Source: a virus
Taxonomy: Duplodnaviria; Heunggongvirae; Uroviricota; Caudoviricetes
IMG/VR virus record: IMGVR_UViG_648276644_000012
Location: 1 to 41,039 of that record
Length of the DNA stretch: 41,039 bases
Strand: one strand, 5' to 3'
The translations under genes and the position numbers were made by a program. Below, in pieces: positions 2,906 to 34,150 of this stretch; position 1 is the stretch's first letter; each line of letters begins with the position of its first letter. The notes under the pieces are model-generated. The model did no database searches and was not told the origin of the DNA. It worked only from the letters and a program-made list of their open reading frames with translations.

Positions 2906-3184
2906 ATGAATTGGACAATAAAAATGATAAAGTATAGAGCTGGTATAGATGGTTTAAGAGCAGTCGCTGTTGTGATGTTTCACGCTTTCCCAAGCGCATT
3001 TTCTGGAGAGTTCAATGGGTTTGATTTATTTTTCATAATATCTAGCCTTTTAATTTCAAGTATTATTTTTAAAAATTTAAATAGCGGTAAATTTTCTTTT
3101 TCCGATTTTTACTTAAGAAGGATTAAGCGGATTTTTACACTCTTACTCAGATCATATATAAGATTAGATTGCAAGTCTAGTTAG
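2906..3184 (+). pseudogene. Truncated N-terminal fragment of an OafA-type AT3 acyltransferase
   Basis: 92-aa ORF with AGIDGLRAVAVVMFHAF...GFDLFFIIS...FKNLNSGKFSFSDFYLRRIKRI matching only the first ~2 TM helices of AT3 proteins, then stop; an SGNH ORF with TM anchor follows 85 bp later. Confidence 0.5.
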
Positions 3185-3268: not shown

Positions 3269-3964
3269 ATGAAGTCAAAACAAACAAATAGAAAGTCTCA
3301 AGCAAATAAATATTTGGCAATGCTGTTTATTCTGATTGCAATAGTTATTATAGTATTGTCTGTTCGTTCAATTAGAAATTATTTATCTCAAAAAAAAGTT
3401 AACGACTTTCAGGCTGTGATGCTAGATTTTAAAAAAATGAATGCTAATCAAGCTGACGGCGACATTGTGGTTTATGGCGACTCGCTCATACAAGGAATGT
3501 CACCATATGGGTTAAACTTTAAATATGTTAATATGGGGGTCGGAGGATACTCTATACATCAGATCCTAACTCTATCAGAAAATTATGGGGCGTCTGGATA
3601 TAAAGCTGCGATAATTGAAGGTGGAGTTAACGATGCGATGGGTGCGAAAACCGAAGAGGAAATATTTGATGATTATGACAAACTGCTTAAGAGTGTATCA
3701 AAGGTTGATAATATTTATGCATTAAAAGTTTTGCCAATCATAAGCGGGGCAAGAAAAGACGTAGACCATGTCAATTCAAGAATAAGCATGATTAACTCTA
3801 TTATTGATAGAACATGTAGTCGCATAGTTAACTGCAATATAATAGAAGTTCCTGCAGATTTTTTATCTGATAAAAAATCTGAATTGTACTTTGATGATGG
3901 AGTGCATTTAAATAAAAATGGCTATGCCGTTTGGATGAGAGAGATTAATAAACATGTGAAGTAA
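3269..3964 (+). CDS. Membrane-anchored SGNH/GDSL hydrolase (esterase/acetyltransferase partner domain)
   Basis: N-terminal TM helix LAMLFILIAIVIIVLSV; SGNH blocks VVYGDSLIQG (block I), GGVNDA (block III), DDGVHLNKNGY (block V); own SD AAGGA before ATG. Confidence 0.75.
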   Translation: MKSKQTNRKSQANKYLAMLFILIAIVIIVLSVRSIRNYLSQKKVNDFQAVMLDFKKMNANQADGDIVVYGDSLIQGMSPYGLNFKYVNMGVGGYSIHQILTLSENYGASGYKAAIIEGGVNDAMGAKTEEEIFDDYDKLLKSVSKVDNIYALKVLPIISGARKDVDHVNSRISMINSIIDRTCSRIVNCNIIEVPADFLSDKKSELYFDDGVHLNKNGYAVWMREINKHVK

Positions 3965-3989: not shown

Positions 3990-6227
3990 CTACCAGGAAG
4001 CATCAATGTAAAATATTGGTGAGGCTGTAGTAGATCCATTAATTGTTATCGACCCGGTTGATGCGCTTATTGTTGCCATCGCCATACCGTAAGATATTCC
4101 ATCAGCAGTGAACGGTACAGGGACATTTTTTGTTACTGTTGGTCTACACCACCTTGGCAGCGTTAGAACAGTATTACCATTCGCAAATGAAGTGGCTGCC
4201 AGTTTAATATTAATTGAATTGGCAGTTAAACTTGACGGTGCCTGTACTGTTACGTTTGTTCCAGCCCACCATTGAACAGCTGCTCTTGGCGTGTAATCAA
4301 CACGCGACCACCAGTCGATAATGGCAGAGCAGATAATTTCCGCATACAGACGATACCCTAACTGGCTTTGGTGAATGTCATCACGCAGAAGTGGGTCGTA
4401 TTGCGTATTGAAATACTCTGGATATGGGGCCGGGAGCTGGTGAGTTGTTGTTACACAAATGACGTTATTGCCATATTTCATCATCTGGCGTTTACCAGCT
4501 TCTCGCAACTCTGCGACACCGTCGTAGTTAGAAGATGGCTGGCCAGCCCCTCCAATAAATGACTGGCTATACCACATCCACGGCTCAACCCAAACAGGGA
4601 TACGACCAAGGCCATTGCAATATAAGACAAACTCATCTATCAATGACGCCATATAATCGCCGTTTTGGTTTGCCTGCCCTTCGTTAGTTCCGGCAACCAT
4701 AATAACGATGTAAGCATCACCCGGCCCCTGAGCCTTCAGGAGATCTAACTGTTGCCTCATTGTCTGTCCGGCAACTGCCTTGTTTACAATGCTATGTGAA
4801 CGGTGGCCGTTCGCTCCATCCATTAATTGCGGAATGTACGAGCTGAACGCGGAAATGAAATCCTCAGCTGTACTATCACCGTGGATAAGGATATTAAGTG
4901 GAGGCTTACCGTGCACGCCATTATCAGAGGTGTAGCTGCATAATCCAGTTACACGCGCAGAACCTCCAGATGCCGTGGTCAGTGCAACAAACCCAACTTC
5001 GTATACATCCCCTACATCAGCAGTATCAAAGGGCAAACGTATCCCAACGCCATTCATCGTTATCTGCGCCCAGTTTTTACCTTGCAGTGATACGCCAACG
5101 GTTGCTTTGCCCGGGGCGTACGACAGTAAACCTCCTGGCAGCGGGAATGGAGTTCCTTCTGCTACTGGACCACCAATTGGTTTCTGTCTATAAGACCACT
5201 GTGTAGCACCTGGTGCCCCATAGAACATCATCCAACCACCAGAGCATCGCAGAACAATCCCAACTTCTGAGGCGGCCTGAGATTCCATACGAATATGTGC
5301 AGAAATATGCTCTCCAATATCTATTGGTGCGAACAGGCCTGTTGTACGGTTAGTAGTTAAGGGGAAGATAGCTGCGCTATCTGAGGATATGGTGACTTCA
5401 CCTTCATAGAAGAACGTGTCACCATTTATGGAATAAACTTTACAATCTGACCATTCCACTCGCTTCATGCGAATAGGGTTTCGGTTGAGGATAGCCTGCT
5501 TAGCCAGGTAATCCACTTCCCCACCGGTTGCTTTAAAGTTCAGGTGCGTAAATTCAAACGTACCCTCCCCCTCGTACTGCAACGATTTAAACAGTGAGTA
5601 CAGATCACTGTCGAATCTCAGGGTGACATTTTTATCAATGATTACTTTACTGTTCGCAAGGAAAGAAGCGTTAGCAGCTGTAGACGGTACGGTGTACACC
5701 ATCTGATTTTTTGAATGATTAGAGAAGTAAACATACCCGTAGGTCGCAACACTATCGCGCCATGCCTGGACTACGTTAGAATTAACATAGCTTGGGATTT
5801 TTGTGATCGAATGCAAAACAAGGTCTTCCTGTGAGATAGCTCCATTTACCAGATTAACACCGCCTTGAGATGCAAGATCTTGCCTGAGTTGGTCAGGGTC
5901 ATACTTCAACACATTCGGAAAATAGAACTGCTGCGAACCATACGCATCATAAACAGCCATAGAATGCCCTTGCACAGTTACGAACTTGGCAATTTGTCCG
6001 TTATATACCGGATATCCAGCAGCGTTAATGATGATTGGTTGCGAAACAGGAACGTGAGAACCGTCTTCGTTCTCCACATAAACCTGAATCTGGTTTTCAG
6101 GATTTACCGGGTCAGTGTCAATTTTACCGATATAAATTTTTCCATTGGCAACCGCTTTAAAAGAACGCGCCATAGTGAAGAGTTGCGAAGGCATCGATAC
6201 GATCACATTGGCTGTAATGTCTGTCAT
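3990..6227 (-). CDS. gp9: Tailspike: P22 gp9-type N-terminal head-binding domain plus divergent receptor-binding region containing an SGNH esterase domain
   Basis: First ~115 aa [11 protein letters not shown]...NVLKYDPDQ match P22 tailspike N-terminus as recalled; aa ~443-640 carry SGNH blocks [30 protein letters not shown]. Confidence 0.85.
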
Positions 6228-6327: not shown

Positions 6328-7230
6328 TCAGTAGTTATGTACTGAAGGAGGTAATTCTTTATTCTTAAGTCTCATCCATGCGGAAAGATTCGTTGGTCCG
6401 TCTGGCTCATTAATATCAACATCTCGTGTGTGATTGATTAAAACGTCTCTCGCCATTCCGATAACATACGAGAACTCATGGCCATAGTCGTAGCATCTGC
6501 CGGAATAGTTCGATTGAATTTGTTTTAGCGCCAGATACAGTTCGCGGAATAATGCCTGTGAGCGGTTGGCATAATCCCATAACCATACAAGGCTGTTTGC
6601 TTCTTTTGCAGAAAGCTCGTTGGTTTTCTTCTCTTGTTTGCCGATAAATTCACCTTCAAGCACTACCCTGTGGATGTACTCTACGGCTTGCGGTATCTGA
6701 GATGCATCAAGCTCTTCAATACTTTCCACATTGAAACGCTGATGAATCATTGCATAAGCTTCTGGGTACATTAGATGCTTTTTGCTGACTAGCATATTTA
6801 CAGCATCACGAAGCGGAGTCCTGTCATCAACAGATGTTTTCTTACGTGCATTTTCTGCCTTTCCCTTTGTCCAGTAGTCATGCAGTACAGTAAAGCATTC
6901 TTCCTGGTACTGAATCAGTTTATCACGGATGTCAGCACGAACTTTCTCAGGGTTGATGCTGAACAGCCATCCATTTAACTTCTTCAAAGGAAGGCAGAGT
7001 AGCTTACGAAGCTTCCCATCAGCGGCAACCATGTTCATATGAACACAGTTGAATTTGCTAATCTGCTTCATGAGTTTTGTTTGCTGCGTTGACCAGCTCA
7101 TTCCAAGGTTTTCAACGATTGGCTTCATCGCAACATATGCAACTCCGGCAGCCATGGCGGTGATAATTTGCTGACCGTTGAATGGTACATAAGAGGTGTT
7201 CACTGCTTCTAAAATTGCTATACTATTCAT
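6328..7230 (-). CDS. ant: Antirepressor Ant (P22 immI)
   Basis: [21 protein letters not shown]... antirepressor N-terminal domain; follows arc as in P22. ORF extends to 7296 only via a TTG codon, so the ATG at 7230 (300 aa) is taken as the start. Confidence 0.8.
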
Positions 7231-7298
7231 GTTGGTTTTTCTCCACGAATTTACTGACAACCGAAGCCCTGACTGTTCCCGCAGTTGGGGCTTCAACT

Positions 7299-7476: not shown

Positions 7477-7523
7477 AGGTCCACCGTGGACCTATTGAGA
7501 ATATAGTAGAGTGCTTCTATCAT
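7477..7523. promoter_or_regulatory. immI operators: Omnt (7477-7493) and Oarc (7502-7523) with Pant/Pmnt
   Basis: AGGTCCACCGTGGACCT 17-bp palindrome (Omnt) and reverse complement of ATGATAGAAGCACTCTACTATA (Oarc) in the 90-bp arc-mnt divergent intergenic region. Confidence 0.7.
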
Positions 7524-7550
7524 GTCAATACACTAACTTGGAGTGATGGC

Positions 7551-7802
7551 ATGGCTAGAGATGATCCGCACTTTAACTTCCGTATGCCTATGGAAGTAAG
7601 GGAGAAATTAAAATTCAGGGCGGAGGCGAATGGGAGATCAATGAACTCCGAGTTGTTACAAATCGTCCAAGATGCTCTATCAAAACCATCGCCTGTGACT
7701 GGATATCGCGACGATGCAGAACGACTCGCTGATGAGCAGTCAGAGCTTGTTAAGAAGATGGTGTTTGATACGCTGAAGGATTTGTACAAAAAACCCACCT
7801 GA
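7551..7802 (+). CDS. mnt: Mnt repressor
   Basis: MARDDPHFNFRMPMEVREKLKFRAEANGRSMNSELLQIVQDAL... matches P22 Mnt as recalled. Confidence 0.9.
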   Translation: MARDDPHFNFRMPMEVREKLKFRAEANGRSMNSELLQIVQDALSKPSPVTGYRDDAERLADEQSELVKKMVFDTLKDLYKKPT

Positions 7803-7818
7803 AGGTGGGTCCTATTTA

Positions 7819-8238
7819 TTAGTCTTGCTTTGTTGATGGTATAAGAGATGCGTTTGCCTCTTTTGGCTTCAAGGTATACATCCCACCATTAAAAGGATCT
7901 ACAGCAAGCCAACCAATTAACCCACCAAACACAAGGTTTCCACCAATATACCAGCCATTAGCATTGGCTTTGATTGGCAGGGTAACTGGTTCGTACCCAT
8001 CCTTTTCCATAGTGATCTGGTAGCTCTTTTTGCCAAAATAACTACCATCTGACTTGGCAAGAGTTACTCCTTGCGGGGTCTTACCTTGCGCAACAATCAC
8101 GCCTGATTCGTCTTTTACCTTAAAGCTCGCACCGGAAGGATTGCTGTTCACTTGCACAAGCTGCGTTTCGTCACCAACAATAGTTGCGCACCCAGATAAC
8201 AATATAGCGCCAGCAACGACGCCAATAATCCTCTTCAT
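7819..8238 (-). CDS. Lipoprotein with PEGA-like domain and C-terminal glycine-zipper segment (moron at sieA-equivalent position)
   Basis: Signal peptide with lipobox LLSGC; PEGA-like pattern VQVNSNPSGASFKV...GKTPQGVTL...KDGYEPVTL; glycine-rich hydrophobic tail GGNLVFGGLIGWLAV. Start taken at second ATG (MKRIIGVV). Confidence 0.55.
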   Translation of the reverse strand: MKRIIGVVAGAILLSGCATIVGDETQLVQVNSNPSGASFKVKDESGVIVAQGKTPQGVTLAKSDGSYFGKKSYQITMEKDGYEPVTLPIKANANGWYIGGNLVFGGLIGWLAVDPFNGGMYTLKPKEANASLIPSTKQD

Positions 8239-8355
8239 ATCAATTTCCATATTTAAAAAACCGGAAACATCCTAATGACAAACCATTCAAATATGAAGTA
8301 GGCAAAAGATGTTTACTTTTTTCATGGTATCCTGCTCAAAACTAAGGAGGTTGGC

Positions 8356-8745
8356 GTGAAGCAATTTCTTACTGTTATGTTCTTATTCATATCTTTTGGG
8401 GCTACAGCAGAGTGCTGGGTCGTTGGAGATATGCGCGGAATAAGCTATTCAGAACGAAATAATTTCCATCCGGAAGAAGATGGTTTTAGTGGAACATTCA
8501 TCATTAAGACAAACGGTGAAGATGCCAGCATCACATATTCTGGGACAGATGCGGGCGGCATGGCTTACAAAGCATTGTCTAAAAACTCCATCATAGGAAT
8601 CGGCGCGAATGGCGAAACTCAACGCGTTATCGACTCATGGGTAATACATCCTACTGGAACAGTTTTAATGTCAAAAACCATTTCCGGTTATGGAAATATG
8701 GATTCAACCAAAGCTTTTGTTGGAAAAGTAAAAAGAAAATGTTAG
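8356..8745 (+). CDS. Secreted small protein, paralog A (signal peptide, conserved ECW...FVGxV...C frame)
   Basis: GTG start 5 nt after strong SD AAGGAGG; signal peptide MKQFLTVMFLFISFGATA; paralogous to the protein at 32481-32885. Confidence 0.6.
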   Translation: MKQFLTVMFLFISFGATAECWVVGDMRGISYSERNNFHPEEDGFSGTFIIKTNGEDASITYSGTDAGGMAYKALSKNSIIGIGANGETQRVIDSWVIHPTGTVLMSKTISGYGNMDSTKAFVGKVKRKC

Positions 8746-8769
8746 CGATTGAATCCAATTTCCCATACG

Positions 8770-31532: not shown

Positions 31533-32885
<1,353 letters not shown>

Positions 32886-33078: not shown

Positions 33079-33188
33079 AGCATTCAAAGCAGAAAGCTTT
33101 GAGTAGCGCGAAATGCAGCTGCAAGACAGCAACCGTGGAGATAAGCATCACGGCGCGTTACTCAAAGCTAACTGACAGGAGAATCCAA

Positions 33189-33515
33189 ATGGATGCACAA
33201 ACACGCCGCCGCGAACGTCGCGCAGAGAAACAGGCTCAATGGAAAGCAGCAAATCCCCTGTTGGTTGGGGTAAGCGCAAAACCAGTTAACCGCCCTATTC
33301 TCTCGCTGAATCGCAAACCGAAATCACGAGTAGAAAGCGCACTGAATCCGATAGACCTTACGGTGCTGGCTGAATACCACGAACAGATTGAAAGCAACCT
33401 GCACCGTATTGAGCGCAAGAATCAGCGCACATGGTACAGCAAGCCACGCAGTGAAATGGGTGTGACTTGTGTTGGTCGCCAGAAAATGAAATTAGGCAGC
33501 AAACCACTTATTTGA
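33189..33515 (+). CDS. N: Antiterminator N (lambda type)
   Basis: MDAQTRRRERRAEKQAQWKAANPLLVGVSAKPVNRPILSLNRKPKSRVESALNPIDLTVLAEYH... matches lambda N as recalled (arginine-rich motif). Confidence 0.9.
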   Translation: MDAQTRRRERRAEKQAQWKAANPLLVGVSAKPVNRPILSLNRKPKSRVESALNPIDLTVLAEYHEQIESNLHRIERKNQRTWYSKPRSEMGVTCVGRQKMKLGSKPLI

Positions 33516-33526
33516 GAGGAATTAAT

Positions 33527-34150
33527 ATGTCATCAATCCGCTTAACTACGAGAATGAAAGAGGAAATCGCTCGTAACGCTTTAATTAAGTCTGGGGTTTT
33601 CACTGAACTTGAAGAAGTAACAAAGTTAAAGAACCAGCTTGCACTTGACGCCAGAGTTATTGCGTTTGGCGGTAAAAAGAAAACTGAGGAAGTGGATCAG
33701 TTATCATCCAAGTTGGTAGCTATAAGTGAAGAACTTGAAAAGATGGGATGTTCATTTTACTCATACGGTGTTCGTTCTACTTCAATTTATCTGACTGTAT
33801 CTGGCAGAAGGGTTGGATGGCATTCATATGGGAAAGACGGCAACGGCGAAGATATATTGCTCCCTACTCCAACCAAAGATAAATGCATGTTTGACGCAGA
33901 ACACGAAATAACAAAAAGGTTTGATGAAATCTGCGCATTGCAACAAAACCTTGAAGCCTTGAAAAAGGATATCGAATCAAATGTATGGGCTGCTTTGAAC
34001 TCAGTAACAACAGTTAAGCGACTTATTGAAGTTTGGCCTGAAAGCAAAGAATTGCTACCAAAAGAAGCAGATAAAGCAAGTACAGCACTTCCTGCTTTAC
34101 GGGTAGAAGATTTGAATAAGATGATTGGACTTACTTCCGAGGCCGCATAG
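33527..34150 (+). CDS. Hypothetical early-left protein (ral/sieB-equivalent position)
   Basis: 207 aa from MSSIRLTTRMKEEIARNALIKSG; AT-rich by eye; no recognisable motif. Confidence 0.5.
   Translation: MSSIRLTTRMKEEIARNALIKSGVFTELEEVTKLKNQLALDARVIAFGGKKKTEEVDQLSSKLVAISEELEKMGCSFYSYGVRSTSIYLTVSGRRVGWHSYGKDGNGEDILLPTPTKDKCMFDAEHEITKRFDEICALQQNLEALKKDIESNVWAALNSVTTVKRLIEVWPESKELLPKEADKASTALPALRVEDLNKMIGLTSEAA

Follow-up and report, generated by a model that had tools for sequence, protein, structure and literature searches.

Villafane and co-workers gave the name ‘ant moron’ to the interval between gene 16 and gene 9 of P22-like phages; it shows 10 different gene arrangements among 16 P22-like genomes and is, in their account, the only part of the late operon where gene flux is high (PMC2629481). 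In P22 this interval carries the superinfection exclusion gene sieA, which is present in only a third of the sequenced P22-like phages and which, as a single chromosomal copy preceded by 85 base pairs of its upstream DNA, is expressed sufficiently for full exclusion (Leavitt et al.; PMC10883804). Here we describe the corresponding interval of an E. coli P22-like prophage with the immunity region of phage 434; the window analysed is the whole stretch of 41,039 nucleotides (nt) of IMG/VR record IMGVR_UViG_648276644_000012. Between the mnt repressor gene (7551–7802, plus strand), which forms the left boundary of the variable interval, and the gene for a gene 16-type (P22) ejection protein (8770–10611, minus strand), which is the last late gene before the interval and forms its right boundary, the prophage carries a lipoprotein gene of 139 amino acids (7819–8238, minus strand) and a gene for a secreted protein of 129 amino acids, here termed protein A (8356–8745, plus strand). 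Both open reading frames (ORFs) were present as initially annotated. We hold with considerable confidence that they represent two independent morons, and that protein A is an exported barrel and a member of the Hex family residing in the sieA slot. The general variability of the locus was already known, and both genes have been annotated as hypotheticals in sequenced phages; what is new here is the occupancy of the sieA slot by the secreted protein (and not by the lipoprotein), its paralogy to Hex and the prediction of a periplasmic location for the Hex family.

The second system relevant to this locus is Hex (heterologous exclusion) of phage 434, a protein annotated in the phage genome as ‘repressor protection protein’. 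The hex gene is co-transcribed in lysogens with cI from PRM, as determined by reverse transcription-polymerase chain reaction (Shkilnyj et al.; PMC3564112), and lambda-imm434 lysogens of Salmonella exhibit hex-dependent exclusion of P22 (Susskind and Botstein 1980, cited in PMC3564112). Deletion of hex increased spontaneous induction 30-fold in a RecA-dependent manner, and a stable 6-kDa fragment, sHex, which begins at Glu43 of the authors' 158-amino-acid ORF, inhibited the RecA-stimulated cleavage of the 434 and P22 repressors in vitro, while overexpression of full-length Hex stopped culture growth (PMC3564112). That paper makes no mention of a signal peptide, membrane or export for Hex.

The present prophage contains two genes of this family. 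Paralog B (32481–32885, plus strand) follows the 434-type cI repressor gene (31852–32484, plus strand), the first gene of the PRM operon, and its start codon overlaps the cI stop codon (ATGA), an arrangement by which it would be translationally coupled to cI. It is a homolog of hex and of Sf6 gene 38, being 96% identical at the protein level to the gene that follows cI in phage 434 (where it is hex), lambda imm434, HK446, HK633, Sf6 and Sf101. The initial annotation had described protein A as one of two paralogs, and this relationship was confirmed: A and B share 29% identity over their full length (133 columns, E 7e-14), including Cys positions and the motif K-x-F-V-G-x-V. Protein A also matched phrog_2651 (E 2.9e-61) and, by tblastn, the genomes of 434, Sf6 and HK446 (E 9e-6 to 5e-5). 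Protein A is thus a divergent member of a family for which genetics has defined one exclusion phenotype, directed at a P22-like phage. Protein A resembles 434 Hex and its counterparts in Sf6 (gene 38), HK446, HK633 and Sf101 in its predicted signal peptide, in a Cys just after the cleavage site and in a C-terminal Cys, and both are non-essential prophage cargo. The two differ in placement: Hex, like paralog B, is encoded immediately behind cI in the PRM operon, but the gene for protein A sits between mnt and gene 16, where the late region has its sieA slot, and follows sieA-type upstream DNA.

Comparison with related P22-like phages and prophages supported the earlier view of the locus as a hot spot for morons that corresponds to the sieA region of P22. 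Both genes had been assigned to the sieA position; the mnt–gene 16 interval is indeed that of P22 sieA, but only the secreted gene fills the slot and orientation of sieA, and the lipoprotein gene does not. P22 sieA lies between genes 16 and 9, on the strand opposite to the late operon and convergent with gene 16, and the gene for protein A has the same position and orientation. Upstream of it, 47 of the 50 nt at 8309–8358 (plus strand) are identical to the DNA upstream of P22 sieA. This junction contains an extended -10-like sequence, TGGTATCCT, at 8325–8333, and the strong Shine-Dalgarno (SD) sequence (AAGGAGG, 8344–8350) and GTG start (8356–8358, after a 5-nt spacer) described initially. The same junction and GTG are found ahead of sieA in P22, hkcB in epsilon34 and orf129 in Emek; its last 34 nt are common also to Emek and E. 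coli MS 110-3, which lack the rest. The distal part of the divergent spacer (8239–8308) is shared with epsilon34 and not with P22 or Emek. As the same junction precedes unrelated genes, it is a cassette-exchange point; the envelope proteins encoded behind it include no fewer than three that are unrelated, namely SieA, HkcB and the Hex-like protein.

Despite the common slot, orientation, promoter-proximal 50 nt, SD and GTG, protein A and SieA, both of them envelope proteins, are different kinds of protein. SieA spans the inner membrane several times (PMC10883804); protein A, which shows no sequence similarity to it, is a predicted soluble periplasmic barrel. Homology to SieA was considered and rejected (BLASTP E 0.93; no hydrophobic segment after the signal peptide, the best 19-residue Kyte–Doolittle mean being 0.77), as was homology to the epsilon34 gp14/hkcB product, which is unrelated and combines a transmembrane helix with a coiled coil. 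Among sequenced phages, protein A corresponds to the orf129 product of Emek (96.1% protein identity), and the lipoprotein to the gene 15 product of epsilon34 (gp15, 97.8%). Both lie at the same locus; each of these phages has one of the two genes, annotated as hypothetical and with no link made to Hex or to any other moron slot. The clade of protein A (at least 46% identity) was found only beside the ejection genes of P22-like phages. In RefSeq (WP_001334102), the secreted gene starts at ATG 8377, giving 122 amino acids and removing the charged start of the signal peptide. The start at GTG 8356 is supported in preference to this because the SD and the junction are common to P22, epsilon34 and Emek.

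Protein A is probably made in the lysogen, as suggested by its location on the strand opposite to the late operon, its sieA-type upstream DNA and the gene order in relatives. Mnt is a repressor made by the prophage. In related prophages, a homolog 87% identical to protein A is encoded by the last gene of an operon with mnt and a Rap1a homolog, and one 50% identical by the last gene of an operon with mnt and a lipoprotein homolog, both adjoining gene 16. These features favour, by inference, the initial claim that the secreted gene is transcribed independently of the late operon; as for the own promoter expected of a moron, it has the opposite strand and the conserved TGGTATCCT. The -35 part of the annotated P22 PsieA is not conserved in this prophage, epsilon34 or Emek (P22 locus L004, 4431–4461, compared with 8290–8310), whereas the extended -10-like sequence is common to all, and the real promoter of the sieA slot may be an extended -10 promoter. 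Because the P22 -35 region is not conserved, promoter equivalence between the gene for protein A and P22 sieA can only be inferred.

An exhaustive profile search yielded 167 cluster representatives of the Hex family, nearly all of 120–150 amino acids, and no Pfam family was matched by any member of the alignment. Among 130 full-length representatives, the motif AxA|xC ends the N-terminal hydrophobic stretch in 98, a Cys is present in the last 12 residues in 121, and both features occur in 93; of the 98 with the AxA|xC motif, 93 have two or four Cys in the mature protein. There is no aromatic residue among the common C-terminal residues. The AxA|xC motif, the paired Cys and the non-aromatic C-terminus indicate a soluble periplasmic protein, and the family is predicted to consist of soluble periplasmic, disulfide-stapled beta-barrels. 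In protein A, signal peptide cleavage is predicted at ATA|EC, and the structural model is a confident 8–9-stranded up-and-down beta-barrel with Cys20 and Cys129 at its two ends. Because such a barrel has its first and last strands side by side in antiparallel orientation, a closing disulfide between these two residues should be feasible. An outer-membrane beta-barrel of the OmpX/NspA type was considered and rejected, as such proteins have a C-terminal aromatic beta-signal, no cysteines and about 150 amino acids or more. In 434 Hex, sHex begins exactly where the mature protein would, as Glu43 directly follows the predicted signal-peptidase cut in ANS|EC.

For the lipoprotein, the mechanically called ORF extends to ATG 8250; the start at ATG 8238 (MKRII...LLSGC) is backed by the family alignment and by the epsilon34 and RefSeq annotations. 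The epsilon34 product gp15 is a ‘conserved hypothetical’, and the protein belongs to phrog_6823, a PHROGs family with no assigned function. Its signal peptide ends in L-L-S-G-C17, in agreement with the lipobox pattern [LVI][ASTVI][GAS]C; C17 and the following A18 are invariant in 72 homologs, 12 of which are matched by LPAM_1. Under the standard +2 rule of E. coli, Ala at position +2 directs sorting to the outer membrane, and the lipoprotein is thus predicted to be anchored there. Together with the signal peptide of protein A, this agrees, at the level of prediction, with the initial view that both products are envelope-targeted.

The initial annotation had also called the lipoprotein PEGA-like, with a glycine-zipper hydrophobic tail. 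The AlphaFold2 model supports the former in terms of fold, showing a confident transthyretin/PEGA-like beta-sandwich at residues 24–93 with transthyretin, CnaB and carboxypeptidase-regulatory domains as structural neighbours, but the Pfam PEGA profile (PF08308) scored 17.6 bits against a gathering cut-off of 20.8 bits and gave marginal matches in 20 of the 72 homologs. The tail description holds only in a descriptive sense. The Gly-rich hydrophobic segment WYIGGNLVFGGLIGWLAV (residues 94–123) is the most conserved part of the protein, with G95, W96, N101, G109, D114, P115, G118 and M120 invariant, but its 19-residue Kyte–Doolittle mean of 1.3 is below the 1.6 usual for a membrane helix, and the Gly-zipper_Omp, YMGG and Rick_17kDa_Anti profiles had no match at E ≤0.1 in any of the homologs. 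The model is poor in this segment, with a predicted local distance difference test score (pLDDT) below 50 at residues 99–107. On account of the moderate hydrophobicity, the poor model and the lack of a match to a glycine-zipper family, no transmembrane helix was called. The conserved Gly-rich motif is probably the working part of the lipoprotein. A structural role in the virion was considered; the virion gel of epsilon34 has no extra band except Dec and gives no sign of such a role.

The transcription of the lipoprotein gene presents a different picture from that of the secreted gene. It lies on the strand of the late operon, downstream of gene 16, and the orientation of late genes was seen in all its phage contexts, namely P22-like phages, E. 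coli siphophages and Proteus siphophages. No match of at least 9/12 was found in a promoter scan of the spacer at 8239–8355, and the best candidate of a scan by hand was a weak one (TTCATA-17-TAGGAT, 8/12), about 59 nt upstream of ATG 8238. The claim that the lipoprotein gene is transcribed independently of the late operon was therefore not borne out. Between the stop codons of mnt and the lipoprotein gene, a bidirectional hairpin terminator is predicted at 7793–7810 (on the minus strand, GGACCCACC-UUCA-GGUGGGU followed by UUUUUG; -14.5 kcal/mol, z -2.9). The hairpin was also matched on the plus strand, and a rho-independent terminator is annotated on the gene 15 strand in epsilon34. This terminator would end transcripts of the lipoprotein gene or late read-through transcripts. 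As regards the own promoter and terminator of a moron, the lipoprotein gene thus has a downstream terminator and an 8/12 promoter match only; late transcription would be certain, and expression in the lysogen is possible.

The two genes also occur apart. Of 5,426 complete E. coli genomes, 124 carry the lipoprotein gene and 147 the secreted gene, and only 44 have the two side by side, so that the ‘pair’ of the initial annotation is not a unit. In these 44 genomes, which include A35 and O111:H- 11128, positions 7500–9000 recur at 99.7–99.9% identity. Epsilon34 carries the lipoprotein gene together with the unrelated hkcB in the other slot, and Emek and many prophages have the secreted gene with no lipoprotein gene. 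The gene sets between mnt and gene 16 differ among epsilon34, Emek, P22 and E. coli prophages, and it is this presence in some and absence from other syntenic phage genomes that defines a moron in the Juhala/Hendrix sense. Other cargo was seen in the same interval. A gene for a lipoprotein family of 150–161 amino acids (a lipobox followed by AKVSDYQASCEQRY...) is present in other prophages (loci L023, 2002–2454, and L025, 3055–3540). The lipoprotein gene of E. coli WP7-S17-ESBL-01 contains an internal stop and carries a pseudogene annotation (L025, 2501–2920); the 161-amino-acid gene beside it was considered as a SieA homolog and rejected, since it encodes another lipoprotein. In E. coli MS 110-3, mnt is followed by a gene for a ClpP-family protease, and a Panacea-domain (toxin–antitoxin-associated) gene adjoins the homolog of protein A (L026, 661–2127). 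In further prophages, a gene for Rap1a-family type VI secretion immunity (PF18602, E 9.7e-15) lies between mnt and the homolog of protein A, apparently in one operon (L019, 4650–4985; L020–L022). The cargo examined is mostly envelope-targeted, which fits a hot spot for modifiers of the surface and periplasm; phages and bacterial competitors are alike compatible as the targets.

The lipoprotein family extends well beyond P22-like phages, with 728 matches across Enterobacterales. In E. coli, a 68%-identical homolog, present on hundreds of contigs, lies directly before the tape-measure gene of siphophage prophages, as does a homolog in Proteus. The latter is arranged as terminator, 9/12 promoter-like site, gene and terminator, which on sequence grounds looks like a textbook moron. 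The annotated ‘moron product’ gp15 of HK97, which reportedly has a superinfection exclusion function, occupies the same slot, with the tail chaperone genes on one side, the tape-measure gene on the other and a terminator after it, but gp15 is unrelated in sequence, has 62 amino acids and is not a lipoprotein. The E. coli siphophage prophage with the lipoprotein homolog also carries a porin gene (Porin_1/Porin_4) between tail genes M and L, a second moron (L005/L007, 10261–11424). In Enterobacter, a chromosomal copy stands alone among metabolic genes, from which it follows that the family is one of bacterial lipoproteins captured by phages more than once. A distant homolog was detected in Caulobacter phage DMCA (PQ480021.1, 37258–37626; 30% identity, E 1e-3), and the family may reach beyond the phages of Enterobacterales. 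The lipoprotein also recalls Cor of phi80/N15 and Llp of T5 as a small phage-encoded lipoprotein with a predicted outer-membrane location. A Cor-like identity was nevertheless rejected; the match (phrog_1119, E 0.0034; NCBIfam Cor, E 0.19, below the cut-off) is confined to the signal peptide and lipobox, at residues 1–20/30, and the mature parts are not homologous.

We favour, at about even probability, the interpretation that the interval holds two unrelated, independently exchangeable morons, a Hex-like periplasmic protein A made by the lysogen and a lipoprotein that modifies the envelope at the outer membrane. Protein A would be produced in the lysogen from the sieA-type upstream region, exported by Sec, cleaved after ATA and folded as a small soluble periplasmic barrel closed by a disulfide. 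The lipoprotein gene would be transcribed by read-through of the late operon and possibly also from its own weak promoter, and its product would act at the level of the envelope. It is a reasonable though not quite even prospect that protein A excludes P22-like phages at the stage of DNA delivery. P1 Sim, which is encoded by a different type of phage, is a soluble, signal-peptide-processed periplasmic prophage protein that blocks phage DNA entry, and it offers a precedent for a processed periplasmic exclusion protein such as predicted protein A. For the lipoprotein, exclusion or receptor masking is the leading guess, and a tentative one. Equally speculative is an extension to the whole Hex family, 434 Hex included, whose members might act in the periplasm to exclude P22-like phages, for example through disturbance of the ejection-protein conduit or of the muralytic activity of the virion. 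In that case the published anti-RecA activity would have an indirect cause or would reflect the use of a leaderless half-barrel fragment as an artefact, and the slot adjoining gene 16 would be a plug-in site at which DNA-entry blockers of different mechanism (SieA, HkcB and Hex-like proteins) are swapped behind one conserved junction.

Several observations weigh against the favoured interpretation. The identity between protein A and Hex is just 29%, and function may differ. According to the sole biochemical study of Hex, the protein works in the cytoplasm, where it blocks RecA-stimulated cleavage, and this conflicts with a periplasmic mechanism (PMC3564112). The -35 of P22 PsieA is not conserved here, and the spacer scan gave no promoter match of at least 9/12. 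Fold searches returned generic matches only. Distant members of the Hex family and homologs of the lipoprotein occur outside prophages, suggesting a role in host physiology for which phages are not required, and the lipoprotein gene is a pseudogene in one E. coli prophage.

For protein A, the main rival, ahead of a cytoplasmic Hex role, is a protective function unrelated to phages. One or both genes might serve lysogenic conversion against bacterial competitors or host defences, for example in type VI, peptidoglycan hydrolase or lysozyme immunity or in envelope stress. Such a role would suit the occurrence of both families outside prophages and the Rap1a-family immunity gene (PF18602) directly upstream of the protein A homolog in the mnt operon of related prophages. 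It is nonetheless unlikely in view of three further findings. Library, PDB and fold searches gave no specific sequence or fold match to immunity or inhibitor families; members of the clade of protein A were found only in the ejection-gene neighbourhood; and the only known genetic phenotype in the Hex family is phage exclusion. In the searches made for both proteins, no Pfam, NCBIfam or PADLOC profile scored above threshold (the PADLOC anti-phage defence profiles matching neither), the PHROGs matches were of ‘unknown function’ only, profiles run against PDB sequences found no relative, and a literature search on accession and PHROG identifiers found nothing.

For the lipoprotein, a late lytic function through read-through of the late operon is a serious though less likely alternative. 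T5 Llp masks its receptor so that progeny are not wasted on lysing cells or debris, and the lipoprotein could similarly mask a secondary receptor. The late-operon strand in all three phage contexts and the lack of a good promoter in the spacer point in this direction, and gene 15 does not appear in the list that the epsilon34 authors gave of genes expected to be expressed from the prophage. The Proteus homolog, on the other hand, is flanked by terminators and preceded by a 9/12 promoter-like site of its own, a terminator follows the lipoprotein gene in this prophage, and stand-alone chromosomal homologs must carry promoters of their own; late expression and expression in the lysogen are, moreover, mutually compatible.

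A third explanation is that protein A acts like published Hex, as a cytoplasmic ‘repressor protection protein’ that keeps spontaneous induction low because it hinders the RecA-stimulated autocleavage of 434-type repressors. The prophage does encode a 434 repressor, phage 434 is annotated in these terms, and the RecA-dependent rise in induction upon hex deletion and the inhibition of 434 and P22 repressor cleavage by sHex (PMC3564112) speak for it. We consider it improbable for protein A, in which the conserved signal peptide with AxA, the even Cys counts, the terminal Cys and the confident barrel model point to export; a genuine hex gene already lies beside cI, so that a second copy at 29% identity would be redundant. 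Moreover, sHex is a half-barrel fragment lacking the signal peptide, and full-length Hex is toxic when overexpressed. The cytoplasmic mechanism is uncertain even for native Hex, as its fragment begins at the predicted cleavage site, the full-length protein is toxic and the predicted export of the family contradicts a cytoplasmic site of action. A last reading, in which the genes are passenger DNA that is decaying and serves no function at present, as the internal stop in one E. coli prophage and the high gene flux of the region might suggest, is very improbable: each ORF is preserved intact, at 95% identity or more, in over 100 E. coli genomes and also in viable phages, invariant residues span both proteins, and the secreted gene has a strong SD.

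The interpretation of protein A as a periplasmic Hex-like exclusion protein has consequences beyond this locus. The link to Hex and the periplasmic prediction make a 45-year-old exclusion phenotype, for which there is no convincing mechanism, directly testable, and the cytoplasmic anti-RecA model for Hex may need re-examination. P22-like prophages occur commonly in E. coli, Shigella and Salmonella, where the envelope proteins expressed from the prophage influence which phages can infect a strain, with a bearing on phage therapy, typing and transduction. Slot occupants other than sieA show where missing exclusion functions should be sought, and the presence of the lipoprotein at a second classical moron slot and in chromosomal copies marks it as a widely shared envelope factor.

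The late operon is read on the minus strand. Along it, the tailspike gene (3990–6227) is followed by ant (6328–7296) and by the sar RNA (7231–7298; 94 bits), the sole Rfam match in a scan of the whole prophage; arc lies between the sar RNA and mnt. On the other side of the interval, ejection gene 20 (10608–12023) lies beyond gene 16. Near the integrase gene (1–1158), with features at 1536–2576, 2906–3184 and 3269–3964, the prophage carries an intact Acyl_transf_3 gene, likely encoding an O-antigen acetylase, and what seems to be a second acyltransferase gene in two pieces, one an N-terminal fragment and the other a GDSL/SGNH part. The N antiterminator gene (33099–33515) of the early left operon is directly followed by a gene for a nucleotide modification associated domain 5 protein (Nmad5; 33467–34150).

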